From a virus (Duplodnaviria > Caudoviricetes), in IMG/VR virus record IMGVR_UViG_3300005611_000142, positions 1 to 30,457 of that record: 30,457 nt of DNA. The stretch is one strand, 5' to 3'. The notes beneath the pieces were generated by a model. The model made no database searches. It saw only the letters and a list, made by a program, of their open reading frames with translations, and had not been told where the DNA came from. Both the position numbers and the translations under genes were made by a program. Positions within the stretch are counted from its first letter, which is position 1; every line of letters begins with the position of its first letter. Shown here piece by piece: positions 1-30,457 of this stretch.

Positions 1-77
1 AATTCTAAATGTGTCATTGCTTAAATTAAGCACGGTATCAGTAATTCTTATGATATCACCAACTTCAACATTCATTA
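1..77. repeat. Terminal direct repeat (circular assembly overlap), left copy
   Basis: 1-77 is identical to 30381-30457; 77 is a common assembler k-mer size; an ORF reads in frame across the junction. Confidence 0.95.
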
Positions 78-1431
78 ATTCTTGCGTGGCATTAAAGGAT
101 ATTGACTTTTGCGTTCTTGATTTTTTATAAATCATTCTCGCAGTTTCCCAAGCGATCGCAGGATTGGTAATGGTATGGAATGTAAATTCTCCAACCAATT
201 TTTCATTATTGTCAAGCGCCTGATCTCCACTTTCACTGTATACCTGCTGTTGATTGGTAAATTCTCTATCAGGGTCAATCCAATTGACCAATACTTCATT
301 AAATTTTGTTTTCTTTCTTTCGCCCTGTAGGCTTATGCCACCAATTATGTAGGATTTGTCAACGTCAAATGCAACATTAATTGTGGTTGATGTGATATCA
401 GTATCATTGCCACCATCCTCTACTTTTAATTTGTATTTTCCTTGGATATATGGCATTATTCCTCTACAACCATTCAATAATCTTTTTAGATTTTCAAGAA
501 GTTTTGTGTTGGTATCAACCACGGCATTCATTGTTACTGCCGGACCTGAATAATTGTTGTTGTATGATACCGTTTGATCAAATTTAAGTGCCGCAGTCTT
601 AAATGTATCAAAATCAATCTGTGTATAACTTAGTCCAGCACCATACTTGGTATTCAGCATGTAATCCAATAAACAGTTTGCTGGATTGTATGAATAACGA
701 TGCGTGGTTTCATCCGTAAGCGATGATACTATTGCTGGAACTGATCCAGCATATCTTCTAACATCAAAAACTTTCTTGCCAAGTATGTCAAATTTGACCT
801 GTGGAATTCCACCACCAAATGGATTGTTGTCCTGATCTTCTTGTGTCTTGATTTCCTTCCAATAAAATCTCATCATGACCCAAGCAACCTTGGGCAATGC
901 TCTCTGTTTGCTTCCCCAATTTGGACCCTTTAGATCGCCATTGACCGAAAAATTTTCAGCCTGGTTACCATACATGACTTGGAACTTGATCCTACCATTA
1001 AACTTACCACTGGTTACATCAACAACTCCCTGATCCGTGTAGATGTTATCTGGTAATGGTAATGCGACATCGTCAATGTAAATTCTCTTTATGCCAGCAA
1101 TGGGTCCTTCGCATAATGAATAAGCACACCATAGATATTGATTGTTTGTTGAGCCAGTTTCAGCATATATTAATGCACCTCCAACTCTCCTATAACCATA
1201 AACAACGGGTATTGCCACATTGGTTCCATTCTTTGTGACCGTAACACCCTGTGCCGCCTGATCCGCATTCTGTGCCCCCAAATCCGGAGTATCAAAAGCA
1301 CCAAATGGATTGAGAACGAAACCAATGATATCACCAACAAAATTAAGAATTGACTTGAAAATTTTGCCAATGCTCTTGAATAACTTCTTGAATGGCTTAG
1401 TTATGGCCTTTATTGGATTTCCGCCACCCAT
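1..1431 (-). CDS. Tail tip / central tail fibre (lambda gpJ-like) protein, N-terminal part; continues across the junction into 29244..30455 (about 855 aa total)
   Basis: Not in the ORF track. Hand translation from ATG at 1431 (TAATG overlap with the upstream stop) is open to base 1: MGGGNPIKAITKPF...IPVVYGYRRVGG...SLCEGPI...NPANCLLDYMLNTKYGAGL...MNVEV. The Met at 75 equals the Met at 30455. The IPVVYG, LCEGPI and NPA..LLDY..N..YG.GL motifs are typical of siphovirus tip proteins. Confidence 0.88.
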   Translation of the reverse strand, partial: MGGGNPIKAITKPFKKLFKSIGKIFKSILNFVGDIIGFVLNPFGAFDTPDLGAQNADQAAQGVTVTKNGTNVAIPVVYGYRRVGGALIYAETGSTNNQYLWCAYSLCEGPIAGIKRIYIDDVALPLPDNIYTDQGVVDVTSGKFNGRIKFQVMYGNQAENFSVNGDLKGPNWGSKQRALPKVAWVMMRFYWKEIKTQEDQDNNPFGGGIPQVKFDILGKKVFDVRRYAGSVPAIVSSLTDETTHRYSYNPANCLLDYMLNTKYGAGLSYTQIDFDTFKTAALKFDQTVSYNNNYSGPAVTMNAVVDTNTKLLENLKRLLNGCRGIMPYIQGKYKLKVEDGGNDTDITSTTINVAFDVDKSYIIGGISLQGERKKTKFNEVLVNWIDPDREFTNQQQVYSESGDQALDNNEKLVGEFTFHTITNPAIAWETARMIYKKSRTQKSISFNATQELMNVEVGDIIRITDTVLNLSNDTFRI

Positions 1432-1907
1432 TATCCTAACTCCTGAACAAATATGTTACCACAGTGGTTTCCGCCCTTGTGTTCAAAATAGGTTGATGCC
1501 CTATCGATGTATGTTTTCTTGCCCTCATAATTTTCATCAAATAGGCTCACGCTGTATTCAATCCAACTTGCTCCGTTTTGGTATGACCATGAGCATGTTT
1601 TATCATAGAGTGCATCAGCAAGGTATTTGTTTCTAACGCTGTTGTGAACATAGAAAAAATATACTTCAGCATAGATGGTTGGATTCCATAATTTTGTCAT
1701 CAATCCAACCAAACTATAACCAACTATTTCGCCGCCGCTTTCAACAACAAAACACTGATGGTTTTGCTGTATCAGCGTGTGCCTAATCTGTTCCTTGGCA
1801 TATACCTCATCAACTGGCAAGTTTTGAAACACTTCCGCTTCCTTGGCATGTTCTCTAACCAATTGTAATATTTTATTCATGTCCGTTGGTTGAAATTCTC
1901 TTATCAT
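1431..1907 (-). CDS. GNAT-fold acetyltransferase-like protein in the tail module
   Basis: MIREFQPTD start, CFVVESGGEIVGY strand and FFYVHNSVRNKYLADAL (motif A-like) match the GNAT pattern; translationally coupled to its neighbours. Confidence 0.7.
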   Translation of the reverse strand: MIREFQPTDMNKILQLVREHAKEAEVFQNLPVDEVYAKEQIRHTLIQQNHQCFVVESGGEIVGYSLVGLMTKLWNPTIYAEVYFFYVHNSVRNKYLADALYDKTCSWSYQNGASWIEYSVSLFDENYEGKKTYIDRASTYFEHKGGNHCGNIFVQELG

Positions 1908-2482
1908 ACCTTTCTACCCCACCCCAAGTCATTTAATGTTTCATGCGAAAATTCCATTCCCCAATCATTTGGATACAATCTTTGGAAACTGGTTAAATTG
2001 GTTCTTCTGCAATTAATCTTTTCAAAATCAGCAAATTGGCTTTCAACGGTTATGGTTACCGATGCCGTTTCCTCAGCATCCGTGATATCATATGCGCTAA
2101 CGCGACCCTTGAAAATTAATAATCCATTATCACCCGTGCTATCACCAACTGGTTCTTCCGTTGATTGATCATAAAGTATTCTATAGATTGATACGTCCTG
2201 ATTGATTATTGATGGTGTTGCAAAATTAGCCACCACTACCGGCACCAATGCTGATAATTGTATTGCTATGGTGCTGATCGCAAGATCTGAATTTTCGTCA
2301 ACTTCACCTATGCCAAGGAAATTTCCCTGTGCCTCATAGGTATTTGATGAACCCTCTATTGAACTGGTAATGTCAAAAGGCGCATCAGTATATCTTGTTC
2401 CATTGATGTTGAGTAGCAGGTATGAAACAATGGCATCTCTTGCCAATGCTGTTTGTAAATTGCCACTCAATTGTTTTGTCAT
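1904..2482 (-). CDS. Minor tail / baseplate hub protein (gpL / DUF2163-like)
   Basis: Lies between Dit and tip; C-terminal RRTNLTSFQRLYPNDWGMEF..LGWG resembles siphovirus hub proteins. Confidence 0.7.
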   Translation of the reverse strand: MTKQLSGNLQTALARDAIVSYLLLNINGTRYTDAPFDITSSIEGSSNTYEAQGNFLGIGEVDENSDLAISTIAIQLSALVPVVVANFATPSIINQDVSIYRILYDQSTEEPVGDSTGDNGLLIFKGRVSAYDITDAEETASVTITVESQFADFEKINCRRTNLTSFQRLYPNDWGMEFSHETLNDLGWGRKV

Positions 2483-3117
2483 TAGATAATCTCCGTAACA
2501 TCCAATTCATAATTAACTAAGCCATCAGTCCTATATCCCATTTCCTGTATTTCGTTATTCATTATCATTCTAAATGGAACATCGGCAACGATATGATAAT
2601 CTCCAGCACTATCATTAACGGGCACAGTAGTAATTAACGCCGGTTCAAAGTTAATGGTAGCATTTCCGGATCCATCCGTGGTTACTCCAGCATCATCAGT
2701 AATCATGTAAACCTTTGAATGATTGTTAAATCTTATTACATCGCCCGGATTGAATATCTTGGTATCATTAAGAACGCTGTTTATCTCCATGCTGGTAGTT
2801 CCAGCAGCCGCTTCCGTGGTTGTAATTAATGCCACTGTTGCATTATTGGTATATCCGGCACTGTTTTGTGATATCGTGGGCATGACCACATCAAATTCAT
2901 TCAAGCCACCCTGGCTTCTTGCTATGAATGCCTGTATGGGAAGAAATTCTGCCAATGACATTGGAGGAAATCTTAGTATCGCACTCCATATGGTCGTTGA
3001 ATTTGTTAATCTAATAATTCTTCCGCTTGCCGCTGATGTTTGTTTAACGGAATTATTTTGTTTGAAATTAATTGCTTGGAATCCAGGTGATGTTGGAAAA
3101 TTTCCTATATAGGCCAT
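2482..3117 (-). CDS. Distal tail (Dit-like) protein
   Basis: Immediately after the tape measure gene; GDVIRFNNHSKVYMIT and INFEPAL motifs; beta-rich. Confidence 0.65.
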   Translation of the reverse strand: MAYIGNFPTSPGFQAINFKQNNSVKQTSAASGRIIRLTNSTTIWSAILRFPPMSLAEFLPIQAFIARSQGGLNEFDVVMPTISQNSAGYTNNATVALITTTEAAAGTTSMEINSVLNDTKIFNPGDVIRFNNHSKVYMITDDAGVTTDGSGNATINFEPALITTVPVNDSAGDYHIVADVPFRMIMNNEIQEMGYRTDGLVNYELDVTEII

Positions 3118-5600
3118 TATGCTATTGCTCCTTGTTTACCACGTTTTTCCATTGCAGTATTGATTATGTTTACTATTGTTCCTCTTCTTTCGACAAGCAA
3201 TTCATCAAAGCCACTTGCATCAACTGTGGTTATGTTAAAGTTTACATTAACAGGTCCGTTATTACCACCCATGTTACCAATTGCATCCGCAACCTCTCTT
3301 GGTATGACTGTTGAACTCTGCTTGGGCACAATTAACTCCGGTCCATCCTCACCAACTGCAACTGGCTGTCCGCCAATTACCTTACCACCACGCTGTGCTG
3401 TTTGCGCCCTAATGGTTGCCACCTGTGCCAAACCTGAAGCAACGGTTGCCGCTGCCGCAATAAAGTTGAATGGTGGTGGATATGCTTTTAAGGCTTGCGT
3501 CGCTCCAACATAGGTGTTAATTATTGCTTCAGCAATAGCAAATGCCTTGTATGCCGCAAAGAATTTCTTATTGTAAGCCGCAAGTCCCTTGAAGAATGTT
3601 GCACCCTGTTGTAATCCAAATTGAACTTTTTCTTCTTCTGATTTTTTCTCAAATTCAATACGTCTGCGAACAATATCCTGAACTCTTTCTTCATCTCCTT
3701 TGCGTTTTAAGAAACCCTTATCAAGAGCGCCTTCAACAGTATCAAGATATTTCATATCGGCTGCAAGACGTCTTTCAATGTTACGCATATGCATTGAATC
3801 AACAGCCTTATAGAAATTTTCATTAAGTGTTTGTAATTTGTCAAATTTTTCTTGTTCTAATAATATTTCTCTTGAAATTAATGTTTTTTTACCAACACGA
3901 ATAAATTCATTTGTTTCAGATGCTTTTTTTAAATTTTTATCATAAAATTCAATCAATGAATCCTGTTGTTCTTTTAATGCTTCTGTTTGTCCTAATCCTA
4001 AGGATGCCGCATTTAATTTTTGTTGTGCTGCTGTTAGTTGTTCTGTTGCAGTTGTTAAATTATTTGTGCCATCTGCCGCACCATCTGCCGCATCGCCTTG
4101 ATCCACTAATCCTTTGTTGGTAGCAATTAAGGCATCATAAGTTTCTCTTGCTTTCTTTTCTGCTTCATCATAACTTAATCCAGCATTTGTCCAAGCAGTT
4201 GTTAATTCAGCAAGAACACTTTTACCTGATTCTAAAGCCTTTTTAGCCAATTCATTGGTATCAATCCATTCTTCAACACCTTCAACAACATCACCTACGG
4301 TATCTTTTACAACTTCAAATCCTTCAATAGCAAGATCTTTTAATCCGTCTCTTACCTGTTTACCAGTGACTTCAATTTCTTCTAAACCTGGAACAAATTT
4401 TGCAATAGCATTGTATCCTGAAATGATACCTTCAACAAAACTATCAAAAATACCTGTTACAAAGTCAATTGCTTTACCAAGTTGATTTTTAAAATATGTT
4501 GCTATGCTACCTGCTACATCACCAAGTTTTTTCAATACAGCACGAACCTGTGCAATGGTTCTACCCAATCCATTTTCCATAGATAGGTATGTGATTAAAC
4601 TTGCGGCCGCTACTGCTAACAATCCTAATGGGTTTCTTGCCATAGCAAGTGTTAAACTTTTAACACCAGTTGTCACCATCTGCAATACTTTTACAAGTCC
4701 TGCACCACCTAATACAGCAACAGCAATTTTAGCACCCTTGATAAAGTTGCCCATATCAAAATTAGATTCTTTGATGAATTCATTAAGTTTAAAGAACATA
4801 AAGCCAAGTTCTTCACCAATTGTTTGAGCAAGTCCATTTGAACTTTGAACTATGCTTGTGAATGTTTTGGCCAATTGTGTAAGTGCTAAACCCAATCCGC
4901 TTTCACCTATTGTAGCAGAGAATTTATCAGTAGCATCTCTTAGATTTGATAATGCACCTGTTAGTGTGTTAGATTGACGTTCAATACCACCTGCAAACTC
5001 TGTCTTACCAATTTGATCAATTAATTTGATAATTGATCTACCATCATTTGCAACGGTTTGTGTTGTGCCTTTGAAATTTACTTTTAGTTTATCGCCTTCA
5101 ACCTTTACCTTAATACCCAATTGTTTGAGCATTTCAAATTCGCCGGTTGTAGCGTTGAATACTGCTTGTGCGACATCGTCAATACGTTTACCCATACCAG
5201 CCGCTATGTTGCCCACGTTTGTCATAAACTCCGTGGTTGGATTTAGACCAGCATTTTTAAATTTAATAAATGCTTGTGTGACCTCATCCAATTGGAACGG
5301 GGTGCCAGCCGTAAAATCTTCAATTAATTTAAAGGATCTTGCGGCTTTGGCAGTATTACCTTCGATGGTGACCAATGTTGCTCTTAAGTCTTCAAAACGT
5401 CTTGAAACGCTGATGACTCCTGATGCAACTCTACCTAAACCTAAACCAGCAAAAACTCCTGCCGCTAATCCGGCAATAGATCTAAATGTATTGTCTACAC
5501 TTCTTGCACGTTTTTCGACCTTGGATAAATTAGCATTGATTTTACCCAATGCCTGTTGAGTTTTATCTACGGCCCTTATTTCTACGGTCTGTGTTGCCAC
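3117..5600 (-). CDS. Tail tape measure protein
   Basis: 827 aa, Ala/Gly-rich helical; tape-measure domain (TPFQLDEVTQAF, GEFEMLKQLGI); C-terminal VGEDGPELIVP; follows the tail chaperones. Confidence 0.93.
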   Translation of the reverse strand: MATQTVEIRAVDKTQQALGKINANLSKVEKRARSVDNTFRSIAGLAAGVFAGLGLGRVASGVISVSRRFEDLRATLVTIEGNTAKAARSFKLIEDFTAGTPFQLDEVTQAFIKFKNAGLNPTTEFMTNVGNIAAGMGKRIDDVAQAVFNATTGEFEMLKQLGIKVKVEGDKLKVNFKGTTQTVANDGRSIIKLIDQIGKTEFAGGIERQSNTLTGALSNLRDATDKFSATIGESGLGLALTQLAKTFTSIVQSSNGLAQTIGEELGFMFFKLNEFIKESNFDMGNFIKGAKIAVAVLGGAGLVKVLQMVTTGVKSLTLAMARNPLGLLAVAAASLITYLSMENGLGRTIAQVRAVLKKLGDVAGSIATYFKNQLGKAIDFVTGIFDSFVEGIISGYNAIAKFVPGLEEIEVTGKQVRDGLKDLAIEGFEVVKDTVGDVVEGVEEWIDTNELAKKALESGKSVLAELTTAWTNAGLSYDEAEKKARETYDALIATNKGLVDQGDAADGAADGTNNLTTATEQLTAAQQKLNAASLGLGQTEALKEQQDSLIEFYDKNLKKASETNEFIRVGKKTLISREILLEQEKFDKLQTLNENFYKAVDSMHMRNIERRLAADMKYLDTVEGALDKGFLKRKGDEERVQDIVRRRIEFEKKSEEEKVQFGLQQGATFFKGLAAYNKKFFAAYKAFAIAEAIINTYVGATQALKAYPPPFNFIAAAATVASGLAQVATIRAQTAQRGGKVIGGQPVAVGEDGPELIVPKQSSTVIPREVADAIGNMGGNNGPVNVNFNITTVDASGFDELLVERRGTIVNIINTAMEKRGKQGAIA

Positions 5601-5751
5601 TCATCGCCTCCTCGCCTTTCTTTTGTTGTAGTAAAAACCATTCATACCACAACCTAATTTCAAGGACACTTAACTGCATAACTTCCTCCACACTCTTGTG
5701 TAAAGTTTCTGCTATTCTCATTAGCAGTTGAAGTTCAGTGTCCTCCTTTAG
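5563..5751 (-). CDS. Tail assembly chaperone C-terminal extension (gpGT-like), reached by -1 frameshift; alternative ATG at 5721
   Basis: The -1 frame is open from the slippery site: LKEDTELQLLMRIAETLHKSVEEVMQLSVLEIRLWYEWF...GRR*, a typical gpT-like sequence; missing from the ORF track. Confidence 0.8.
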   Translation of the reverse strand, partial: LKEDTELQLLMRIAETLHKSVEEVMQLSVLEIRLWYEWFLLQQKKGEEAMSGNTDRRNKGRR

Positions 5752-6089
5752 TTTTTTGCTATTTCCTCATATTCAGAAACAGCATTGTTTAACTCGCTAC
5801 ACACTCTTAACAATGTTGCTGGATCAGCCTCATTTAGTAATGTAGTTTTGTCAAACTTATTAAACATTGGTTTTCCATCTGGATCCAATGCTTTAGCAAT
5901 TAGACTTTCCACCAATGCTTCAACGGTTTTACCTTGTTGCTGTAGACTAATAATTTTGCTTTCTACAGCAAATGGATAAGCCGCCTTGTAGTAGATATCT
6001 GTTTTCCATTCAGGAACAGAAATCTTTTGTAATCCACCACTTAATTTTTCCTTAAAGTGTGTTTGTATATTGTTAATAACGTTACTCAT
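5748..6089 (-). CDS. Tail assembly chaperone (gpG-like)
   Basis: Upstream of the tape measure gene; ends in the slippery sequence (..IAKN*); ALDPDGKPMF motif. Confidence 0.82.
   Translation of the reverse strand: MSNVINNIQTHFKEKLSGGLQKISVPEWKTDIYYKAAYPFAVESKIISLQQQGKTVEALVESLIAKALDPDGKPMFNKFDKTTLLNEADPATLLRVCSELNNAVSEYEEIAKN
5751..5757 (-). other. -1 programmed ribosomal frameshift slippery heptamer A AAA AAC
   Basis: GCA AAA AAC TAA at the 3' end of the chaperone gene: an X XXY YYZ pattern with an open -1 frame. Confidence 0.8.
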
Positions 6090-6382
6090 TTATAACTCCT
6101 TCGTGTTATCTCCCTAACGGTCGGTCCAAGTATACCATTAGGTGCTTGTTTGGAATGCCCTCGTTCAAGTGCGTCAATGTGAGGAACGCGATTGACAATC
6201 TTCTTCTGTCTAAATGACGATTCCAATCGCCAACCACGCCTCGCTTGACCCTTGTCTATTGGAGTCTTGGATCTTGCAACCTCCAATATATCGCTCGCAA
6301 TCCTGGTCATTAACTTCTCTTTTTCTCTTTCAAGAGAAGCAATGGCCTGTCTTGTGCCTGTTACCTTAATAGATAACATCAA
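6086..6382 (-). CDS. HK97 gp10-like tail completion / neck protein
   Basis: ARSKTPIDKGQARRGW and LERGHSKQAPNG motifs; basic 98 aa protein in the neck-tail region. Confidence 0.8.
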   Translation of the reverse strand: MMLSIKVTGTRQAIASLEREKEKLMTRIASDILEVARSKTPIDKGQARRGWRLESSFRQKKIVNRVPHIDALERGHSKQAPNGILGPTVREITRRSYK

Positions 6383-6388
6383 CGTTTC

Positions 6389-6799
6389 CTATGCGTTATA
6401 CGCTTGAACGTCTAATGCGCCGGTGCCTTGGAAATTTACTGTGCATGTTACAAGATCATCGTATGATGCTGTTCTTGAAACTGATGTCACAAGTATCTTA
6501 CCAGTAAACTTCTCACCAGCAGTTGTTGATGGATAGAATTCCACGAATAGGTCACCATCAGCATCGGGTCTGAATGCATCAGATGCCGCTGTGTGTCCAT
6601 CGTCGTAAACTACTTCCATTGAACCTGTAAATTGGTGTAAGCCATTCTTATAAGTTCTCGCTGCATCTCCCATGACAGTATCCTCAATAACATCTTTTGA
6701 ATGTTCTACTGTCCAGGAACGAACTTGAGCGATAGCAGACTCACCTGTTGAGTCAGAACCAATTTTCACAGTTCCATTTTCGCCTGTATATGTTGCCAT
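6389..6799 (-). CDS. Major tail tube protein
   Basis: MATYTGENGTVK, SWTVEHSKDVIEDTVMGD and VNFQGTGAL are typical of short siphovirus tube proteins. Confidence 0.85.
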   Translation of the reverse strand: MATYTGENGTVKIGSDSTGESAIAQVRSWTVEHSKDVIEDTVMGDAARTYKNGLHQFTGSMEVVYDDGHTAASDAFRPDADGDLFVEFYPSTTAGEKFTGKILVTSVSRTASYDDLVTCTVNFQGTGALDVQAYNA

Positions 6800-6802
6800 A
6801 GT

Positions 6803-7090
6803 TTAGTCCTCCTTTTTGGCAGTTTGAAAATCATCGTAGGAAAAGGTAAAGTTGTCTTGTTCTTGGATGTTATCTTCCTCAACCTTGACTTCCTCAACCT
6901 TTTCTTCAGATGCTTTTGAAGTTACCTGGGCTTTTGCAGAGATTTTATTCTTGCTGCCGTTGCTCTTAGTAACTTTTTTTTCTGATTCAGGTTGTTTAGT
7001 CCAACCCTCATCAAGAAATCTATTAACACGATCCTCTTGGATAAATTCCCAGGATCCGTCCTTCCACATTTTTGTGTATTTTATTGGCAT
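6803..7090 (-). CDS. Hypothetical protein (neck region)
   Basis: TAATG coupling to the upstream gene; low-complexity K/E-rich C-terminus. Confidence 0.65.
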   Translation of the reverse strand: MPIKYTKMWKDGSWEFIQEDRVNRFLDEGWTKQPESEKKVTKSNGSKNKISAKAQVTSKASEEKVEEVKVEEDNIQEQDNFTFSYDDFQTAKKED

Positions 7091-7539
7091 TATGTTGCTC
7101 CTTTAGTGAATGAATAATGCACTTCAACAATCATAACAAATTCGCCCAATGGTGGCGTCCTATCAATCACTTCTATTGAAGCAACGTGTGTGGTTGCCGC
7201 CCTTGCTGATGCCAGTTCGCGTGTGCGATCCGTGTTCAGTGCTTCTTCTATTCTTTCAATTAAGTTGTTGCGTTTCTCATCGACCGATTGAACGAATCCC
7301 TTGCGTCCATCAGAACGCACAAATCCTCTAATGTTGACCTCAATGATTCCTCTCCTATAACCACCCATGGCTTGATCTTCTCGTGTCTCATTGCCAGCGG
7401 TTATCAATAGGGCAGGAAATTGTGTTAGTGCAAGTTTGTCAAGATCAAATGGTTCTCTTGACACGAATACTGGTCTTGGTGGACTCATGTCCTCCAATAC
7501 TGTTATGATGTTCTTTACTGCTAATTCTCTGTTTGACAT
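7090..7539 (-). CDS. Tail terminator / tail completion protein
   Basis: 149 aa between adaptor and tube; MSNRE..FPALLITAGNETR..LIERIEEAL pattern of gpU/gp17-like proteins. Confidence 0.7.
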   Translation of the reverse strand: MSNRELAVKNIITVLEDMSPPRPVFVSREPFDLDKLALTQFPALLITAGNETREDQAMGGYRRGIIEVNIRGFVRSDGRKGFVQSVDEKRNNLIERIEEALNTDRTRELASARAATTHVASIEVIDRTPPLGEFVMIVEVHYSFTKGAT

Positions 7540-7545
7540 GCTACC

Positions 7546-8001
7546 TTACCTTTTTAGGCGTAGGTAGTGTGTGGGTTCCTTTTCTGCTTCATCAACCGTT
7601 CCACTACTATCCGCGTCATATTCAACACCATCACGCAACACGAGATCAAGTTCTCTCTCATACTCCTTGCGATAGTATTCCATCTTGCGTTCAAATAAAT
7701 CTGTTTCTGGATCAAATTTAGCAAGTTTAGGAAATATGTGGAAACCCAATACGTTAAAAACGCAGGCAGTGGTTAATTGGCTTGCAGTATATAAATCTTC
7801 ATCGGGTTCATTGTTGCCCGTGTTTAGTCTCGTAAGATCATATTTTCCAACATGATATGTAGGCCACCATCTAATTCTTAGATCGCGGAAAACATCGTTC
7901 TGTGCTTTCGTAATTTCTGCATCAAAATCAGGAATGCCAAAATCTAAGATGTCTGGTTCATATTCCTGTATGTTAGATATGGTTGCAAGTGTAATTGCCA
8001 T
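7546..8001 (-). CDS. Head-tail adaptor (connector) protein
   Basis: Directly after the capsid gene; start reassigned to ATG 8001 (AAAGGA upstream) because the track's extension overlaps a promoter box and abuts a terminator. Confidence 0.7.
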   Translation of the reverse strand: MAITLATISNIQEYEPDILDFGIPDFDAEITKAQNDVFRDLRIRWWPTYHVGKYDLTRLNTGNNEPDEDLYTASQLTTACVFNVLGFHIFPKLAKFDPETDLFERKMEYYRKEYERELDLVLRDGVEYDADSSGTVDEAEKEPTHYLRLKR

Positions 8002-8062: not shown

Positions 8063-8070
8063 GTATTTAG
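8063..8070 (-). promoter_or_regulatory. T4-late-like promoter box CTAAATAC
   Basis: Located just after the capsid-gene terminator, upstream of the neck/tail operon. Confidence 0.6.
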
Positions 8071-9013: not shown

Positions 9014-9047
9014 AATATCGTCTCCTTATATTAGCAAATTGTTGTTG

Positions 9048-13861: not shown

Positions 13862-13864
13862 AGT

Positions 13865-19622: not shown

Positions 19623-19664
19623 ACATATCTCCTTATTTCAAATCTTTGTTTTAGACTTTTTGGT

Positions 19665-22503: not shown

Positions 22504-22532
22504 TTGACAAAATAGACAATTTAGTCTATAAT
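22504..22532 (+). promoter_or_regulatory. Consensus sigma70 promoter TTGACA-17-TATAAT
   Basis: Perfect -35/-10 with 17 bp spacer upstream of ORF 22592; inverted repeat TAGAC-N6-GTCTA spans the spacer and the start of the -10. Confidence 0.88.
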
Positions 22533-22882: not shown

Positions 22883-23085
22883 AAACGGTGGCAATCCTAC
22901 TGTTCTTTCTGTTCGCCAAGGGTGCATGGGCGGACACTCCCATTGTTATCGTAACGGATGAAAAAATGCAGTTGCCCAAGACCGTGATCACCACGGAGGG
23001 CACATACCTCATAATACCCGATTACACAACGGGCAAGCCCATGGCAGTGATCCAAACCAGCAAGAGCAAGAAGAGCAAGGACTAA
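22879..23085 (+). CDS. Small exported/membrane protein
   Basis: RBS AGGAGG; signal-peptide-like MKTVAILLFFLFAKGAWA. Confidence 0.7.
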   Translation: MKTVAILLFFLFAKGAWADTPIVIVTDEKMQLPKTVITTEGTYLIIPDYTTGKPMAVIQTSKSKKSKD

Positions 23086-23311: not shown

Positions 23312-23596
23312 ATGAATAACACACAAGCACGTGACATCCTTAGACAGCGCCAAAGCACAGATTTAGAACTGGGCACGTGGAGTGAAAGAAAGCAGTTTGA
23401 TACAGCCCTTGCTGAACTGTATAAGGAACGCAATTGGTGGATATTCACAATGGGCGAGGCTTGGTTCAACAGACAGGCTGAACGCTATCACCAAAAATGG
23501 ATTGAGAGTGGTGGATTTTGGGCTGACAATGATTACACCATAGATAGAATATGTTGGGAAACTGATCCTGAGAATCCACACGCACCAAATCTTTGA
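23312..23596 (+). CDS. Hypothetical early protein
   Basis: MNNTQARDILRQ..., Trp-rich 94 aa; start reassigned to the ATG. Confidence 0.62.
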   Translation: MNNTQARDILRQRQSTDLELGTWSERKQFDTALAELYKERNWWIFTMGEAWFNRQAERYHQKWIESGGFWADNDYTIDRICWETDPENPHAPNL

Positions 23597-23700
23597 GATG
23601 GATTTTTCCGCAACCTGTGGTTACCCTGGTTTAGCGAGATGAATGGCGTAAGCCTTGCCCCCCCACCACTCTGTCACACAGTGGGACGCCCCTCACCCAC

Positions 23701-23729
23701 AGTATAACACACTCTGACCCCAAGGTCAA
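23701..23729 (-). promoter_or_regulatory. Sigma70 promoter TTGACC-17-(TGn)TATACT, leftward
   Basis: -35 at 23724-23729, -10 at 23701-23706, extended -10; mirror image of the rightward promoter. Confidence 0.72.
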
Positions 23730-23763: not shown

Positions 23764-23792
23764 TTGACCACCGTGCGAAACTGTGCTATACT
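23764..23792 (+). promoter_or_regulatory. Sigma70 promoter TTGACC-17-(TGn)TATACT, rightward
   Basis: -35 at 23764-23769, -10 at 23787-23792, extended -10; no convincing ORF downstream. Confidence 0.75.
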
Positions 23793-23839
23793 GTAGATAT
23801 AGTTAGGGAGCGACCCCTCACGGCCAATCACAGTCCAAA

Positions 23840-23956
23840 ACGGTGGCAGCCAGGGTGGAATCACGGTATCTCCACGGTGGTTTCATGGTGGTTTCACGGT
23901 GGAAATCAATCAGAAAGTTGTGGGGGAACCGTGGCGACAGGGTGGATAAACGGTGA
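23840..23956 (+). repeat. Iteron-like ACGGTGG-type repeats including an 11-nt tandem (23873-23905)
   Basis: CACGGTGGTTT CATGGTGGTTT CACGGTGGAAA plus about five degenerate copies. Confidence 0.7.
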
Positions 23957-24065
23957 TTATCAGAATATTTCAGGGGTTTAGAGACATTTTGGAGAGGGGG
24001 GTGCTAAACATAAATCCCTCTACACAAATTTCGAGCATGTTCTCTACGCAAGGATCACCCTCTGC

Positions 24066-24103: not shown

Positions 24104-24844
24104 CTACGGTTTCTCGTGATTTTGTTGTTCTTTTGAATGGCCCCGTTGCTTGCGCTTGCCCTTCATGTGATCCAGTGTATCTCCATATAGATAGGCAAGT
24201 ATGTGGCTTCCTGGCACCTTATGGTCTATGTGCGCTGCGAGGTTATGAAAACGGTTGCCCTTGGCTTCATACTGCATTCTAACTTGATCAAACACGAAAC
24301 TGTCATGCCATTCCCTTAGCAAATAGATCATGTCCGTGTCATATAGTTTTCTAACACTTGCTATGTAACTGTGTGTGCTTGGGTGTTCAAGATTAAACAG
24401 CAGCAGTCCACATTCACTGTGAAGGTTGTGCCTTCCCGCGTAACTCATTAGGCAGTCTCCTTTATAGAGATTATGTGTTATCCAGTCTTCGTCTATGTGT
24501 TTGTGGAAACGGGTATCTGCATCAATCCACAGTAGCCTATCATAGTCATCCAAAGCCCAGTCTTCAAGTGCCTGTGCTATTGAGTATACCTTGTAGCAGA
24601 AACGCACACTGTCATGCTTGTAACTGCTCACTGGTCTGTAACTGTTGCGCTCAACAAAGTCACAGTGTAGGTGTAGGTGCGTGGTCTTTATCGCCAGTGT
24701 TTCTTCTGAATATACCTTGAGATCCAGGAGATCATGTGGGAATGTGTGCCAAAAGCCCTGTGCATACTGTTCATATAACTCCCTGTTGAAGGAGGTGATT
24801 ACGAGCGTTTTGTGTATTCTTTTGATCTGCGTGTCCAAATGCAT
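24104..24844 (-). CDS. GT-A glycosyltransferase (DxD motif)
   Basis: VITSFN, VRFCYKVYSI, LLWIDADT, SECGLLLFNL, EWHDSFVFD and DHMKG.RK motifs of a phage GT family. Confidence 0.82.
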   Translation of the reverse strand: MHLDTQIKRIHKTLVITSFNRELYEQYAQGFWHTFPHDLLDLKVYSEETLAIKTTHLHLHCDFVERNSYRPVSSYKHDSVRFCYKVYSIAQALEDWALDDYDRLLWIDADTRFHKHIDEDWITHNLYKGDCLMSYAGRHNLHSECGLLLFNLEHPSTHSYIASVRKLYDTDMIYLLREWHDSFVFDQVRMQYEAKGNRFHNLAAHIDHKVPGSHILAYLYGDTLDHMKGKRKQRGHSKEQQNHEKP

Positions 24845-25407
24845 ACTCTGTCTCTCGTGTTGAAAAGGGGGTCTGGTTGGCTGTATGGAAACACTTCCTC
24901 GATCTCATGCTCCTGTGCTTCAAACACGGCTATCCATTCGTGCTTGTCCAACAGTGTTATGTGTGCGTTCCTGCCGTCCGGCAACTGCTTCTTGGCGGGG
25001 GTCATGTCTATTATGTGTAGGTTTGCGTCTGCCAGGCTCTGGGTGTGCGCAAGCACACGCTTGATGTCCTCCCGTTCAATGTGTTCCAGCACATCGCAGG
25101 AATATACCACATCATAGCGTTCCCGTAGCGGGGTGTCTCTGTATGGTTCATGTCCCGGGTCGTATAGATCTATCTCAATGGTGTGCTTGATCAGGCTTCG
25201 CAGCCATTCTGCAGTTCCACCCTTGCCACAGCCATAGTCCAGGAATGTTTGCCAACGCTTGGCCTTTTCGCTCTTGCGCAGTTTTGGGTTTGAGTATTGC
25301 GTTTGGTTCTGCATGATCTTGTCCAGCAACCAGGGATACTGCTTGCCCTTGCCAGATTCAGGAAATGTCCTGTGCCAATCAGTGTAGATTGTCTTGTTAG
25401 GAAGCAA
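24799..25407 (-). CDS. Class I SAM-dependent methyltransferase
   Basis: FLDYGCGKG, YDPG, YDVVYSCDVLEHI and LPDGRNAH; probable TTG start at 25407, 6 nt after GGAG. Confidence 0.85.
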   Translation of the reverse strand: MLPNKTIYTDWHRTFPESGKGKQYPWLLDKIMQNQTQYSNPKLRKSEKAKRWQTFLDYGCGKGGTAEWLRSLIKHTIEIDLYDPGHEPYRDTPLRERYDVVYSCDVLEHIEREDIKRVLAHTQSLADANLHIIDMTPAKKQLPDGRNAHITLLDKHEWIAVFEAQEHEIEEVFPYSQPDPLFNTRDRVCIWTRRSKEYTKRS

Positions 25408-25846: not shown

Positions 25847-25854
25847 TTATTTAG
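25847..25854 (-). promoter_or_regulatory. T4-late-like promoter box CTAAATAA
   Basis: TAAATA ends 5 nt before ATG 25842 (leaderless arrangement, no SD). Confidence 0.58.
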
Positions 25855-26297
25855 TCATCCTTGTAATCGCTTAATATCTTTCTGATACTGTCCGTGCTGT
25901 GCCTTGCAGTCAAATCACTAAATCGTAAATTTTCATTGCTTCCCTGCAGGCCCTTCCTGCCTTCATTGATCCTTGGCAACATAACAGTATCAGTGGATCC
26001 ATCCTCAAGATGAAAATCAATCTGCCAATCATTGTTGCCCTGTTCTTCAGGTATTGGAAAGAATAACTGTGCTCCAATTCCATCAACAAACTGTCCTTGG
26101 TATTTCACATACTTTGCCCTGCATTCACCCTGCATGACATCATCAAATGCAAATTGAAAGGGCTCAGGTATCTTATCAATCTTCGCATATAGATTTGCAT
26201 TGTCACTGTTAGGATCATAATACAGTTTCAATTTGTAGGTGTGTTTTAGGGGATCATTCCATTTTAGTTTCTCTTTGATTTCATATAATTTTGCCAT
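25851..26297 (-). CDS. Hypothetical protein under its own sigma70 promoter
   Basis: RBS AAAGGAG; 148 aa; no recognised motif. Confidence 0.75.
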   Translation of the reverse strand: MAKLYEIKEKLKWNDPLKHTYKLKLYYDPNSDNANLYAKIDKIPEPFQFAFDDVMQGECRAKYVKYQGQFVDGIGAQLFFPIPEEQGNNDWQIDFHLEDGSTDTVMLPRINEGRKGLQGSNENLRFSDLTARHSTDSIRKILSDYKDD

Positions 26298-26323
26298 TGC
26301 AATTCTCCTTTGTGTATTGTTAC

Positions 26324-26352
26324 ATTATACAATAAAACGGGTATAATCTCAA
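26324..26352 (-). promoter_or_regulatory. Sigma70 promoter TTGAGA-17-TATAAT
   Basis: -35 at 26347-26352, -10 at 26324-26329; downstream sequence resembles that of the 22504 promoter. Confidence 0.8.
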
Positions 26353-26489
26353 TGGATAATGTATCCAAACAGTAATAGGTGTCTAAAGACACCTGTTATC
26401 GCACAAAAATCTGTTTCGCTCCACTCAACAGATATTTTCTGCTTCTAACACAAATGTTCCTTTCCTAATACAGAGATAAACACCACTTG

Positions 26490-26834
26490 ATGATTATTTG
26501 TCTTTATGCAGATTGTTCAGTCATACGGAACCTGTTTAAGGTTCCGTATAAAAAAGACTTTATGCGAGTTGCACAGCCTAAACGGAAGTAGGTATTTTTC
26601 TGTTATGTGTTACTGGACTCTGCTCTTTTCCAACCTACAGCGACTCATCTTGCGATGCCTAAACCTCGTTCCAAATTGTTTAGGTGTTTGTAACAACAGT
26701 TTTTCGTATGTTAGCATTCATACTCAGTAAATCCAAATCTATTGCTTTCAGTTTTTCTTTACTGTTTAGGAGTGCATACTCATCATATGCCCTTGTCTCC
26801 AGCGGAATTATATCTGGCCCGCTAACCTTATGTG
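26490..26834 (-). ncRNA. Candidate large multi-helix non-coding RNA
   Basis: No credible ORF; at least six helices including long-range and pseudoknot-like pairings (see findings); boundaries approximate. Confidence 0.55.
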
Positions 26835-27044
26835 CTAATTGAATATGCCTTTGAGTTTTTTATAGGTGTTACCTGAATACTTACGCCCTTTTTGTTTGCC
26901 TTTTGTATTTGGATCAACATTAGTAACCCATTTTGTAAGTTTTTCAATCTGGTAATAATTTAGGGAGCCTAAGTCTCTTGTGCCGTAATATTTTTCAGCC
27001 AAGTCATAGAATTTTGCGTTAAATCTTTGTTTATAATTTGCCAT
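26835..27044 (-). CDS. Small basic hypothetical protein
   Basis: 69 aa, Lys-rich, 18 nt downstream of CTAAATA; directly upstream of the ncRNA candidate. Confidence 0.62.
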   Translation of the reverse strand: MANYKQRFNAKFYDLAEKYYGTRDLGSLNYYQIEKLTKWVTNVDPNTKGKQKGRKYSGNTYKKLKGIFN

Positions 27045-27061
27045 CGTTTTGCCTTATACAC

Positions 27062-27084
27062 TTATTTAGTCATAACCTAAATAA
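27062..27084. promoter_or_regulatory. Back-to-back CTAAATAA boxes (minus 27062-27069, plus 27077-27084)
   Basis: TTATTTAG-tcataac-CTAAATAA inverted pair. Confidence 0.58.
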
Positions 27085-27105
27085 AGTATAGCAAAAGTGG
27101 CTATT

Positions 27106-27333
27106 TTAGTCAATATTTGATTTAACCAAAGCAGTGGTCTTGCCACAATCCATGCAGGAACGTCGTGCGATGGTATCTCTTAGGCTGCCTCTTTGGCTTT
27201 CAGGACGATGGTTTGGGTTTGGATAAAAGCGTAGATTGAAATCCGTGCTTCCACAAAATTGGCAGGTATCAAATTGGAACATCTGCCTCTTGCTAAGGGT
27301 ATAGGTGTCCGGATTTACCTTTAGATAGGGCAT
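27106..27333 (-). CDS. Small zinc-ribbon protein
   Basis: CQFC...CMDC; start reassigned to ATG 27333 (TAATG coupling). Confidence 0.62.
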   Translation of the reverse strand: MPYLKVNPDTYTLSKRQMFQFDTCQFCGSTDFNLRFYPNPNHRPESQRGSLRDTIARRSCMDCGKTTALVKSNID

Positions 27334-27521
27334 TACAGCATCATGCTCAGTGCTACGATAACGCCAAGCAATTGCATGAATACAACACCAACCGCCCAAC
27401 CAAAATAACGCTTGATATCGTCAATGTCCTCTTGCATGTGTGCCAGATGATTGTTGATGATTAAATCAACCTTTTGCTCCACCAAAGCAATTCTTGTTTC
27501 TATTTCGTTGATATCGCCCAT
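27333..27521 (-). CDS. Coiled-coil plus C-terminal TM protein (XhlA/holin-like)
   Basis: IETRIALVEQKVD..NNHLAHMQEDI then a hydrophobic tail; start ATG 27521 (TAATG coupling). Confidence 0.6.
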   Translation of the reverse strand: MGDINEIETRIALVEQKVDLIINNHLAHMQEDIDDIKRYFGWAVGVVFMQLLGVIVALSMML

Positions 27522-27952
27522 TATAATACCGTTCCAAGTTGGACTGCACGCCAATCCGCACCATCATATACCGCAATACAGCCAACACCAGCACTGTCAT
27601 CTCCGCCATCCGAACAGTAGGCAACGTCACCCGCAGCCTTGTCCGTTCTTGCGTTTAACTGTGCGGTAGTTTGTGGTGAAAGATTGAGTATTTCCTCAAG
27701 GGCAACCTTGCCCGTTGATGGATCCAATGTTAAATTGGTTGCTGAAGTAGTGTTTAATTCGTCGGGCATGTAGGTTGCCGCAATCTTTGAACTTGCATTT
27801 AGCGGAACCACTCCATTGGCAGTGCCTCTTCCGTCAATTACCAGCACCAATTCGTCAAGTGCTGCCTTTAGATCCGCCCTTGCTGCCGCAGGTGAATCCG
27901 TGCCGCTATCAAGATTGGTTGTAATAATATTTGAACTATTTGCCCAAGCCAT
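27521..27952 (-). CDS. Fibre-like protein, MAW-family paralog 3
   Basis: Shared N-terminal domain; C-terminal GDVAYCSDG..CIAVYDGADW (Mtd-like fibre repeat); RBS AAAGGAG. Confidence 0.65.
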   Translation of the reverse strand: MAWANSSNIITTNLDSGTDSPAAARADLKAALDELVLVIDGRGTANGVVPLNASSKIAATYMPDELNTTSATNLTLDPSTGKVALEEILNLSPQTTAQLNARTDKAAGDVAYCSDGGDDSAGVGCIAVYDGADWRAVQLGTVL

Positions 27953-27968
27953 TTGCTACTCCTTTGTT

Positions 27969-27976
27969 ATATTTAT
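27969..27976 (-). promoter_or_regulatory. T4-late-like promoter box ATAAATAT
   Basis: Intergenic, 17 nt upstream of ATG 27952. Confidence 0.58.
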
Positions 27977-27992
27977 TGGATTTAGCCATATC

Positions 27993-28448
27993 CTAATGTA
28001 AATCCACCCAAGTGCCGTTCGCACGGCCCTGAAATTTATTGGTTGTTGTGTTATAAATGATCATGCCATCCTGTATGCTTGGTATAGCATCTCTCTGTGT
28101 CGTTGTTCTGTTATACACTGTCATGGCTGAATTCACAAAAACATTTATGGCACCAAGTGAAATTGTGCCATCACTATTAAGTGTTAATGATGGACTTGAA
28201 CTTCCTGATGTGCGCCCATATAATTCTAATGCCTTTGAGGATTGTGTTGTGTTTGCAATAATCTGCACGGGATCACTATCCTCCTGTCCAACCTGTATCA
28301 AATCCTCACCAAATCCTGATGGCCCCACATCAATCATATCATTGACGTAACCAGCCATCTTGTATAATTCCGCGCGGCTTTCTGAAATTTTATCAGTGTC
28401 TTGATCTAATTTTGTGGTGTCTATATCACCCGTGTTTGGCCATGCCAT
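27993..28448 (-). CDS. Fibre-like protein, MAW-family paralog 2
   Basis: Shared N-terminal domain; C-terminal TTTQRDAI..GMIIYNTTTNKFQG..NGTWVDL fibre motif. Confidence 0.68.
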   Translation of the reverse strand: MAWPNTGDIDTTKLDQDTDKISESRAELYKMAGYVNDMIDVGPSGFGEDLIQVGQEDSDPVQIIANTTQSSKALELYGRTSGSSSPSLTLNSDGTISLGAINVFVNSAMTVYNRTTTQRDAIPSIQDGMIIYNTTTNKFQGRANGTWVDLH

Positions 28449-28450
28449 AT

Positions 28451-29242
28451 CTAACTCCTTATGTTACCAGTAACATCAACTATTGCGTTTGGTAAACCCT
28501 GAACCATGGCATCAAATGTGCAATCTATTGGCGCATTCTTTCCATACGTATCAAAATTGTATATGTTGAGCGTTATTGGAGATGTTGTTTTGTTTATGTA
28601 TATGATGGGCTTGACCGTTATGCCTTCTTCTACATATATTTCACCAGCACTATCATCACTTGCCACATAATCATTGCTAACATAAAGTGCTTGGCCCGGA
28701 GTATGTGGTGTTACGGTTAGTGAGGTAACCGTGATTGGATCCTCAACCGTTAATTCTCTTGCGCCCACGCTACCACCAAGTGTTGATGAATCTATGCTAT
28801 CAAATGTGGCAGTAATCTTTTCATTGGATAGTGATGTTACTATGTTGGAAATAACGGGCCTTTCACTCACTCCCGCACTGTCAAGATAACCAACGCTAAA
28901 ACTAAAACGAAAATAGCGTGCCTTGATTGCGTTTACGCTGTCACCGGGCGTGTATGTTACGGAACTTTCACTATCTATTGCTCCGCCCGTTGAATCAACG
29001 GTATTTCCATAATAGATGGTAACCTGCGTAACCTGTCCAGTGGTAGTTACTTCCGTTAATGGTAAAAATTGATCTATCTTTTCACCATCAACAATGCCAG
29101 TATCAAATGTTAAGGGAAGGTCGGGCGTTCCATTCCAGGATGTAAAATTATCCCAAGTGTAACCAACGCTATCACCATAGTCAGCCCAAGTTTCCGTGCT
29201 GTATGGTTGTAATAATCCTTCCTTGTAAAATCCTGCTGGCAT
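28451..29242 (-). CDS. Tail-tip-associated structural protein
   Basis: Directly downstream of the tip gene; acidic, beta-rich, KARYFRF motif; four DSxG motifs. Confidence 0.65.
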   Translation of the reverse strand: MPAGFYKEGLLQPYSTETWADYGDSVGYTWDNFTSWNGTPDLPLTFDTGIVDGEKIDQFLPLTEVTTTGQVTQVTIYYGNTVDSTGGAIDSESSVTYTPGDSVNAIKARYFRFSFSVGYLDSAGVSERPVISNIVTSLSNEKITATFDSIDSSTLGGSVGARELTVEDPITVTSLTVTPHTPGQALYVSNDYVASDDSAGEIYVEEGITVKPIIYINKTTSPITLNIYNFDTYGKNAPIDCTFDAMVQGLPNAIVDVTGNIRS

Positions 29243-29243
29243 C

Positions 29244-30455
29244 TTATGTTCCTAAACTATGTGTTGTTACGACAGCACCATCTGATTTAAAGGTGCTACC
29301 CGTGCCCGTAACTGTTTGCAAATACAATGATTTTAAATTCTGTTGATAATAATTTAGCATTGCTTCGATGTTATTTCCAGTCACATTCTTCTGTAGATCA
29401 TAATCATAAAATGTATATGAATCTGGTAAATTTGAACCATCCAATAGTTCAATGCCTGCATTGCCACCATTAAAATAATTTTTTACCCAACGAAATCTAA
29501 TATTTTTTGCCGTTGCACTTCTATTATACGTATCAATACGAATGTAGGATGAATCAGGATAATTTATATCAAGATTTCTTACGGTAATAAATGGTAAAAC
29601 GTCATCGCCATACGTGTATTCTAATTTATAGTGTGCGATGCTGGCATCCTGTGGTCTATTCAAGATTAGATACATTCTCATTCCACCAAACTTCCACATA
29701 TTTTTGGTATCAACCCAAACATATGGTTTGTTTGCAATGCTAACGAATCCTTGTAGTATTTGATTTCCGCTACCATAAGGATATTCATACGAGGGTGCCG
29801 AACTATACACCCAATCCTGTCCAACTTCGCTATTGGTTAGATTGGCAACTGAAAAGATTCCTGAATCCGATGATACTGATAGATATGATTTTAATCCTGT
29901 GGGAGTTTCCCAATAGAATACATTTGGCAGTGTTCCATCAGCATATCTCTTTGACGTGTAATTTTCAATTCTTGAAGGATTGAATTCACATGCTGGTGGA
30001 ACATCTCCTTGTGATTGTAGATATTCAAATGTGTTAAATTTTGTAACCACGGTTGGATTAGTATCTGGCTCATCGGCCAATGGATTTGATTCATTGATGG
30101 CATCCGTTGCGGTTGCTCCAGCACTGTCAGTTATTGGAATGCCAGCACTGTCAACTATGTCAATGCCATTTACGGGTTCATCTGGATTGTTTGGTGGAAA
30201 CACGCTTAATGGATTAAGTGGTGTATTCTTTAATCTTGGATTTACGCTTAATTCCTGTGGCAAATAAACCTGTGGAGGAATTTCAATTTGTCCAACTCCA
30301 CCCGTTGCTGGATACAGTGTGGCATCATGCTCAACCGCATCAATTGATAGAGTAAGATCATTGTTTAGTTTAAGTGTAACAATTCTAAATGTGTCATTGC
30401 TTAAATTAAGCACGGTATCAGTAATTCTTATGATATCACCAACTTCAACATTCAT
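29244..30455 (-). CDS. Tail tip protein, C-terminal part (same gene as 1..1431)
   Basis: Begins MNVEVGDIIRITD, identical to the frame at 75..1; VEVGDII and AVEHD..LY motifs of gpJ-like proteins. Confidence 0.85.
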   Translation of the reverse strand: MNVEVGDIIRITDTVLNLSNDTFRIVTLKLNNDLTLSIDAVEHDATLYPATGGVGQIEIPPQVYLPQELSVNPRLKNTPLNPLSVFPPNNPDEPVNGIDIVDSAGIPITDSAGATATDAINESNPLADEPDTNPTVVTKFNTFEYLQSQGDVPPACEFNPSRIENYTSKRYADGTLPNVFYWETPTGLKSYLSVSSDSGIFSVANLTNSEVGQDWVYSSAPSYEYPYGSGNQILQGFVSIANKPYVWVDTKNMWKFGGMRMYLILNRPQDASIAHYKLEYTYGDDVLPFITVRNLDINYPDSSYIRIDTYNRSATAKNIRFRWVKNYFNGGNAGIELLDGSNLPDSYTFYDYDLQKNVTGNNIEAMLNYYQQNLKSLYLQTVTGTGSTFKSDGAVVTTHSLGT

Positions 30456-30457
30456 TA
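30381..30457. repeat. Terminal direct repeat (circular assembly overlap), right copy
   Basis: Identical to 1-77. Confidence 0.95.

Follow-up and report, generated by a model that had tools for sequence, protein, structure and literature searches.

A 30-kb circular tailed-virus genome with T4-type late-promoter motifs and no matched replicase or endolysin family: a candidate satellite of T4-like phages

Phage-inducible chromosomal islands (PICI), capsid-forming PICI (cf-PICI), P4 and the PICI-like elements (PLE) are phage parasites that typically live integrated, with an initiator or primase of their own and virion parts taken from a helper. Most of the phage satellites described so far replicate by their own means and steal parts of the virion; the lineage considered here appears to do the reverse. 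It is represented by IMG/VR record IMGVR_UViG_3300005611_000142 (Duplodnaviria; Caudoviricetes), the whole 30,457 nt of which are referred to as the window, and which is likewise proposed to be a phage parasite, with an inverse division of labour. The window has a full tail module, primase and Rep families were unmatched in it, and profile searches found no integrase, either there or among the relatives' proteins that were scanned. Scans of GTDB (one genome per species) with patterns for the terminase large subunit (TerL) and the major capsid protein (MCP), which depend on conserved peptide words, found no locus.

MiniFlayer and MulchRoom, satellites of Streptomyces BE phages, resemble the window in having their own capsid and terminase, an HNH gene and no primase or replicase, and MiniFlayer is described as lacking a lysogeny module and as depending on, and attaching to, a large virulent helper (PMC10690885). 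They differ in being linear, 15-17 kb long and bounded by ~1-kb terminal repeats, against 30 kb with a full long-tail module in the window, in having short fibres or a siphovirus-like tail for which that account reports no tail genes, and in their actinobacterial host; a helper-type promoter is likewise unreported in it (PMC10690885). The combination that marks this type, its own capsid and packaging with no recognisable replicase, is found in the window, alongside one fold like that of a single-stranded DNA-binding protein (SSB), and so are extra fibre-like genes. MiniFlayer and MulchRoom head genes were absent among nine MCP matches and the best 30 of 2120 TerL matches. The virophages Sputnik and Mavirus carry their own virion genes behind the late promoter of a larger virus, and the common promoter is the argument for dependence there too; their hosts are eukaryotic, their virion fold is unrelated and Mavirus encodes replication machinery, making the likeness one of analogy and not homology (PMC6723459). 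By analogy, the window may work like MiniFlayer, with promoter logic like that of the virophages.

The best reading of the window, and a fairly probable one, is that it is a satellite virus, which would make its own virion and depend on a gp55-encoding T4-like phage for late transcription, the replisome and lysis. A full long-tailed virion gene set is encoded (head, packaging motor and long tail), with PHROGs matches for the terminase subunits, portal, scaffold, capsid, neck, terminator, major tail, chaperone, tape measure, distal tail and hub. In profile searches with three libraries, PHROGs, Pfam and NCBIfam (30 open reading frames, ORFs, against PHROGs and Pfam at E<=0.1; 21 mostly structural ORFs against PHROGs; 27 ORFs against NCBIfam), no polymerase, primase, helicase, initiator, recombinase, integrase, ParA, repressor or endolysin family was matched by the window ORFs, nor was gp55 or another late sigma factor or a sliding clamp. 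The non-structural ORFs comprise methyltransferases, an acetyltransferase, glycan-related proteins, an Hc1 histone-like protein, HNH-like proteins and small orphans. An earlier note on this DNA, made from the letters alone, had described replication, integration, repression and endolysin genes as missing. That observation is real and partly confirmed, with corrections: the absence of replication, integration, repressor and endolysin families stands against the three libraries, but an SSB-like oligonucleotide-binding (OB) fold and a holin candidate are present. Its statement that nothing looks like an SSB is unsafe because ORF 22592-22882 models as an OB fold whose best solved match is the SSB Rim1, and several of its unassigned ORFs can now be placed (19883 as HNH-like, 20322 and 25510 as matches to phrog_16521, 9942 as Hc1 histone-like). 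The holin candidate is proposed because ORF 27333-27521 is XhlA/haemolysin-like (phrog_1193, E 0.0017), with a hydrophobic segment near its C-terminus, and the replication gap is not absolute because of the SSB-like gene and a candidate RNA-primed origin. The virion genes, their late cores and their small neighbours are as follows.

1..1431, minus strand: tail hub / central fibre (J-like), N-terminal part of 855 aa, continuing through the junction to 29244 (PHROGs)
1431..8001, minus strand: tail and neck, with GNAT, hub-associated tail protein, distal tail, tape measure (827 aa) and chaperones and, within the same interval, neck, major tail, terminator and head-tail adaptor (PHROGs, synteny with DSL-LC06)
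8064..8070, minus strand: late core CTAAATA before the head-tail/tail operon
8156..9752, minus strand: MCP and scaffold (PHROGs)
9814..9820, minus strand: late core ATAAATA, 69 nt before the scaffold start
9942..10330, minus strand: Hc1 histone-like protein (82 aa; PF07432, E 6e-10) and 46-aa basic protein (phrog_31267)
10311..14508, minus strand: portal, TerL, 239-aa protein, terminase small subunit and gp77-like adaptor (PHROGs, Pfam)
14512..18463, minus strand: extra virion or fibre proteins (PHROGs), with late cores at 14544, 16306 and 18499
17021-17767, minus strand: domain common to structural proteins of T4-like cyanophages
26835..27333, minus strand: 69-aa basic protein (late core CTAAATA at 27063-27069) and 75-aa zinc-finger-like protein
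27333..27521, minus strand: 62-aa XhlA-like membrane protein, holin candidate (PHROGs, hydrophobicity)
27521..30380, minus strand: minor tail proteins (143, 151 and 263 aa) and C-terminal hub part, with a late core at 27970

To place the window, 25 relatives were compared, namely DSL-LC06 and 24 IMG/VR genomes retrieved via TerL (G001-G010), a non-coding motif (G012-G015) or the profile of the HNH-like protein HNH2 (G016-G025), giving a lineage set of 26 with the window counted. DSL-LC06 (OR003941) is the closest GenBank genome, with TerL at 66%, MCP at 68% and a 29.8-kb circle; its annotation lists 44 coding sequences, none for replication or lysis, and its gene blocks and promoter motif are those of the window. 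A TerL tree gives this lineage as a 19-genome group at 100/100 support, with the root and the placement of G020-G024 unfixed. Head genes and gene order put the window, on sequence grounds, in the lineage of DSL-LC06, for which the family 'Nanhuiviridae' has been proposed (PMC10611076). Passages of that paper portray DSL-LC06 as an ordinary virulent phage and make no mention of missing replication genes, promoters or a helper (PMC10611076). The lineage is not rare, one MCP pattern retrieving 385 related stretches in IMG/VR. The 25 relatives have the same architecture and, as the earlier note had considered checking, the same gap: no replication, integration, repression or lysin family was matched by 56 non-core proteins of the IMG/VR relatives searched against Pfam and PHROGs (mostly from 87 cluster representatives, with structural and likely shadow ORFs dropped) or by 98 further proteins searched against PHROGs alone (95 of 140 unlabelled ORFs and three from G012, with mostly structural-block ORFs omitted). 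The families matched were DNA and other methyltransferases, a glycosyltransferase, asparagine-synthase-like proteins, cupins, endonucleases and virion proteins. A 'helicase' row for a G010 protein was rejected, the match spanning a methyltransferase motif.

T4-type late transcription starts about 6 nt downstream of its promoter box and requires gp55, gp33 and gp45. The box is an 8-bp TATA box, TATAAATA, without a -35 element, which gp55 recognises together with gp33 and the gp45 clamp; position -13 is loose among T4-type late promoters, and Aeh1 uses CTAAATA (PMC2988020, PMC1524935). In the window the structural operons are headed by a -10-only motif with the core [A/C]TAAATA, present at ten sense-strand sites. 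Upstream of the scaffold gene, the motif occurs in 77 of 84 distinct regions against 8.4% after shuffling (201 loci fetched, 14 skipped for a missing start or upstream DNA), four of the seven misses being HTVC phages; upstream of the head-tail gene it occurs in 58 of 70 regions (shuffled, 6.9%), and it also precedes the 149-aa and 228-aa genes. Across 12 genomes there were 87 sense and 30 antisense sites, and 69 of the 87 lay 15-130 nt before an ATG, in windows amounting to about 15% of the DNA. The window has, as far as its letters indicate, the make-up of a T4-type late unit, with a [T/A]ATAAATA or CTAAATA core ahead of its virion genes. In one run, a relative's RNA contigs span scaffold and MCP, contig depth being unable to rank genes. 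Upstream of the late cores, A/T-rich tracts recur lineage-wide at ~11-bp spacing (-27 to -24, -16 to -12, -7 to -4), a spacing less regular in 14 Mosig sites. An archaeal TATA-box reading of the motif was rejected, the window having sigma-70 promoters and bacterial ribosome-binding sites.

The nearest cultured relatives by head genes are the HTVC111P-type pelagiphages (TerL 47-48%, MCP 43-44%), which are grown on Pelagibacter, are similar in size, share the lack of a DNA polymerase with the window and are said to depend on host replication (bioRxiv 2019.12.14.876532). In contrast to the window, each of four HTVC phages carries an annotated lysozyme or M15 peptidase and a helix-turn-helix (HTH) regulator, and three a DnaD-domain protein, none of which was found in the window by profile searches; the type is without the motif before scaffold and head-tail genes, and without both HNH families and the OB-fold family described below. 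Before the scaffold gene, [A/C]TAAATA is present in 23 of 23 lineage genomes and in none of the four HTVC111P-type phages, though the latter are more AT-rich. Helper dependence had been proposed in the earlier note and is partly supported here, and because the gp55-type core is lineage-wide and absent at the same positions from these autonomous relatives, the type of helper can be narrowed to T4-like, in a genome whose replication gap is less complete than supposed. The polymerase-less HTVC type also serves as precedent for an alternative in which the window is itself an autonomous phage whose early module is minimal and unrecognised, with host enzymes acting at an RNA-primed (ColE1-like) origin. 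This explanation is considered unlikely, if a serious one. The autonomous relatives carry lysins and lack the motif, lysin families were unmatched in the window and in the scanned relative proteins, and the motif fits the gp55 consensus, including both known variants, and not the sigma-70 -10 (consensus as read here), with periodic A/T tracts and no conserved box upstream.

The cultured T4-like pelagiphage Mosig encodes a late sigma factor, clamp, polymerase, primase and GH108, and [A/C]TAAATA precedes 15 of 29 Mosig genes tested. TATAAATA-type sites are also evident before Mosig late genes; late-promoter prediction is reported to have failed in pelagimyophages (PMC7029224). The window shares a gene pool with T4-like phages, with homologues of its glycosyltransferase-like and methyltransferase genes in Mosig and of a structural domain in cyanomyoviruses, and the genes common to the window, Mosig and T4-like cyanophages show, at the sequence level, such a common pool and not a partner. 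G019 and Mosig match over 41 nt that form a terminator hairpin beside a late promoter, behind the capsid genes of both, which is suggestive only. Searches of 19600-27560 against GenBank phage DNA returned only matches of 39-51 nt. That DNA homology links no T4-like helper to the lineage, and that none of 49 HNH2-family loci lies on a contig above 33 kb, would fit a satellite of some other large phage, outside the T4 family, with a late factor or RNA polymerase of its own that recognises a TAAATA-type promoter; given that the motif and its variants match T4-family usage and that several genes are held in common with T4-like phages, this is regarded as improbable.

Near-consensus sigma-70 promoters, at 22504(+), 23729(-), 23764(+), 26352(-) and 27113(-), cluster in a small early region; the total of weak sigma-70 matches in the window is not above that of shuffles (41 vs 34.3). 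These promoters argue for a bacterial host and for expression on entry. The region contains the following features.

22144..22470, minus strand: 108-aa orphan behind late core TATAAATA at 22479-22486 (no family in PHROGs, Pfam or NCBIfam)
22504..22532, plus strand: perfect sigma-70 promoter (12/12 consensus positions) for early genes
22592..22882, plus strand: 96-aa early OB-fold protein, SSB/PriB-like (structure model)
22879..23085, plus strand: 68-aa protein with a signal-peptide-like N-terminus
23312..23596, plus strand: 94-aa orphan (no family in the NCBIfam scan)
23633..23729, minus strand: conserved non-coding element, a sigma-70 promoter with extended -10, then a G-rich unstructured transcript
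23764..24001, plus strand: divergent sigma-70 promoter leading into CACGGT-type repeats and a G6 tract, no convincing ORF
25851..26352, minus strand: 148-aa orphan with its own sigma-70 promoter (11/12)
26298..26834, no strand: non-coding block with several short hairpins and no Rfam match (ORF map, hairpin and Rfam scans)

The 96-aa product of ORF 22592, with 47 homologues, gives a confident OB-fold model (predicted local distance difference test, pLDDT, 93.9) whose best solved match is the SSB Rim1 (Z 6.4, root-mean-square deviation 2.7, 78 aligned). SSB, PriB and RPA are frequent among its top structural rows, beside other OB proteins; the Z of the SSB match is under 8 and tied with OB domains of tRNA synthetase and IF1A, and Foldseek gave no PDB match at E<=0.001. 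Its close structural matches are uncharacterised viral proteins, and an Atlas search gave unnamed viral clusters below 0.9 only. The protein is predicted to be an SSB-like OB domain, with the OB fold seen in the model, and SSB kinship and single-stranded DNA binding putative. The adjoining 68-aa protein, with a lipobox-like motif in some relatives (read by eye), is a candidate superinfection-exclusion protein. The 148-aa orphan has three homologues, a single-sequence model at pLDDT 36.7 and no Atlas match. Relatives that are otherwise divergent (L149:7989-8985, L150:9848-10844) carry, at 92.7% identity, a 1-kb cassette of this orphan, its sigma-70 promoter and the HNH2 paralogue, which points to recent exchange.

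Transcription from the promoter at 23729 would enter a conserved G-rich stretch that holds no convincing ORF. The analogy of T4 origin plasmids and ColE1 makes the element at 23633-23729 a candidate RNA-primed (R-loop) origin. In T4 oriF/oriG plasmids, a promoter with R-loop-forming DNA downstream is replicated in trans by the T4 replisome, and ~100 bp of promoter and unwinding element suffices for plasmid replication in T4-infected cells; oriF and oriG have MotA middle promoters and AT-rich unwinding elements, compared with the sigma-70-type promoter and G-rich transcript here (PMC3016281). A structured-RNA reading of the element was rejected, its transcript being unstructured (z from -0.37 to 1.35). 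The element was found in 10 of 26 genomes, six of which had been used to build the profile, and DSL-LC06, unlike the window, has neither it nor the OB-fold gene. Only four of 32 metagenome matches hold it whole, two being this genome and two 1.1-kb contigs, with no long host contig among them. A 162-kb contig, L152, was rejected as a helper, its non-coding-motif match being a chance hit inside a RecA-like ORF. Contig ends of G004, G005 and G012 lie at or near the 23.7-kb element and may mark a packaging start or a mere assembly break.

The remaining non-structural genes include the most conserved ones, the adjacent HNH1 and HNH2.

18498..22147, minus strand: conserved non-structural block of 152-, 180-, 60- and 73-aa proteins, HNH1, HNH2, FkbM methyltransferase and KpsC-like protein
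19883..20341, minus strand: HNH-like protein 1, HNH1 (PHROGs; in 20 of 26 lineage genomes)
20322..20696, minus strand: degenerate HNH-like protein 2, HNH2 (phrog_16521), with a paralogue at 25510-25842
24104..25407, minus strand: glycosyltransferase-like protein and class I methyltransferase

HNH2 is the most widespread, present in nine of 11 relatives retrieved by TerL alone; its family comprises 3689 proteins, some fused to NUMOD3, I-TevI or HTH modules, and neither HNH profile gave a credible PDB sequence match. The HNH motif residues vary among relatives and are eroded in several members of both families, which suggests DNA-binding roles. The CapR regulator of PLE is a comparable domesticated, endonuclease-derived protein, although related to GIY-YIG and not HNH (PMC8096241). 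An activator encoded by the element itself, in place of a helper factor, is possible, and an autonomous phage would use a domesticated HNH protein to activate its late TAAATA sites, and would achieve release through the XhlA-like holin together with either a lysin that escapes recognition or a small cell-wall inhibitor. The presence of HNH2 in those nine relatives, the strong sigma-70 promoters, the promoter-driven non-coding element, the SSB-like protein and the holin candidate would all sit well with such a phage.

Several further observations weigh against a T4-dependent satellite. Neither helper nor host was found, and no prophage. Mosig shares just 20-52% identical pieces with the lineage, has a GC content of 33% against 41% in the window, and lacks both the non-coding element and the DS[A/T]G peptide motif described below. 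The window shows no enrichment of the exact 8-mer TATAAATA by itself (four against 1.85 expected, with 10 of 100 shuffles reaching four), the TAAATA promoters are known from sequence alone, and the genomes are related, so that the motif counts are not independent samples and show conservation and not independent origins. The OB-fold gene is in just nine of 26 lineage genomes; the candidate origin is absent from the circular relatives LC06, G018, G020, G021 and G022 and is G-rich, whereas T4 unwinding elements are AT-rich. No fold was obtained for the 148-, 108- and 94-aa orphans of the window, and orphans of initiator size occur in relatives (G010, 226 aa; G006, ~190 aa; G021, 530 aa; G023, 352 aa). 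The near-universal HNH2 could be a self-encoded late activator.

Under the satellite reading, host sigma-70 polymerase would after entry transcribe only the early genes and the 23.7-kb non-coding element, and the structural genes would stay silent without a repressor, their -10-only TAAATA promoters needing gp55, gp33 and gp45; a repressor would be unnecessary because the late promoters, if so, are unreadable by host RNA polymerase. On co-infection by a T4-like phage, its replisome would amplify the circle, with an R-loop at the promoter-driven G-rich element as the most likely start and perhaps with help from the OB-fold protein, its late polymerase would express the satellite's own virion genes, and its endolysin would release both satellite and helper. 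Degenerate HNH proteins may bind DNA and tilt the competition. Between infections, the element would persist as virions (by co-infection or hitch-hiking) or as a silent episome. Whether there is a widespread lineage of bacterial 'virophages', complete long-tailed phages in which replication, regulation and lysis genes have been replaced by cis-signals read by T4-like phages, with repressor-free silence and perhaps host-primed episomes, is judged evenly poised. Such a lineage would be a bacterial parallel to the virophages. Among the top-ranked results of literature searches on satellites with T4 late promoters and on DSL-LC06, no account of this arrangement appeared. If true, such genomes will until now have passed as ordinary lytic phages, and the promoter signature alone could suffice to detect them genome-wide, a gp55 promoter without a gp55 gene offering a simple way to find satellites missed by homology searches. 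If T4-like phages carry such parasites, burst sizes and viral-lysis estimates in water would be affected.

The 30,457-nt record closes as a circle of 30,380 bp, its first 77 bases being its last 77.

1..77 and again 30381-30457, no strand: terminal repeat, assembly overlap (sequence self-comparison, IMG/VR class)

The circular closure described earlier, with an ORF across the junction, holds: the 855-aa tail-hub ORF spans the join, the hub gene is uninterrupted in close relatives (801 aa in DSL-LC06, for example), and IMG/VR classes the record as a direct terminal repeat, 100% complete. Sequencing runs searched for the window contained at most 0.08 of its words and yielded contigs of relatives only. 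Closure depends on the 77-bp assembly overlap, which would suit a sub-genomic circle or a mis-assembly of a larger genome holding the missing modules. An artefact of this kind is largely refuted and very improbable: six relatives, DSL-LC06 and five with terminal repeats (G003, G018, G020, G021 and G022), are also circular, at 29.8-33.1 kb, with the same architecture, DSL genomes are described as PCR-checked (PMC10611076), and other assemblies, possibly from the same sample, agree over 19 kb at 99.9% and over 21181-25146 at 99.7-100%. The three non-coding blocks claimed before were also recovered, at 23086-23296, 23597-24103 and 26298-26834, the last being 537 bp and downstream of the 69-aa gene. 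No tRNA was found in a scan of the window, and an Rfam scan gave no match at gathering score.

The portal-scaffold interval (9753-10330 in the window, and its equivalents) is a hot spot of small basic proteins, Hc1-like in the window and DUF5824 and others in relatives, possibly with a DNA-condensing role; no phage match was found for the Hc1 histone-like protein. The peptide motif DS[A/T]G occurs 14 times in the called ORFs of the window against 0.37 expected, in virion proteins such as those at 28451-29242, 15809-16258 and 17777-18463, with counts of 5-18 in most close relatives, 0-1 in G009, G020-G024 and HTVC111P, and 0 in Mosig. A glycan-modification cassette spans 18919-25407 (180-aa protein, FkbM, KpsC-like, glycosyltransferase-like and methyltransferase) and is partly homologous to the 124.8-130.7-kb cluster of Mosig, the glycosyltransferase-like protein being 38.5% identical to a gene in the glycosyltransferase cluster of that phage; its target could be the virion, the host surface or DNA. 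Together, the motif and the cassette suggest a glycosylation sequon of virion proteins. The 73-aa protein of the non-structural block has three homologues. Lineage GC content is 36-44%, against 33% in Mosig and 30-31% in the HTVC phages. Among the relatives, G005, G007, G012 and G018 carry an asparagine-synthase-like amidotransferase of 540-580 aa, and G006, G010, G016 and G020 carry DNA methyltransferases.

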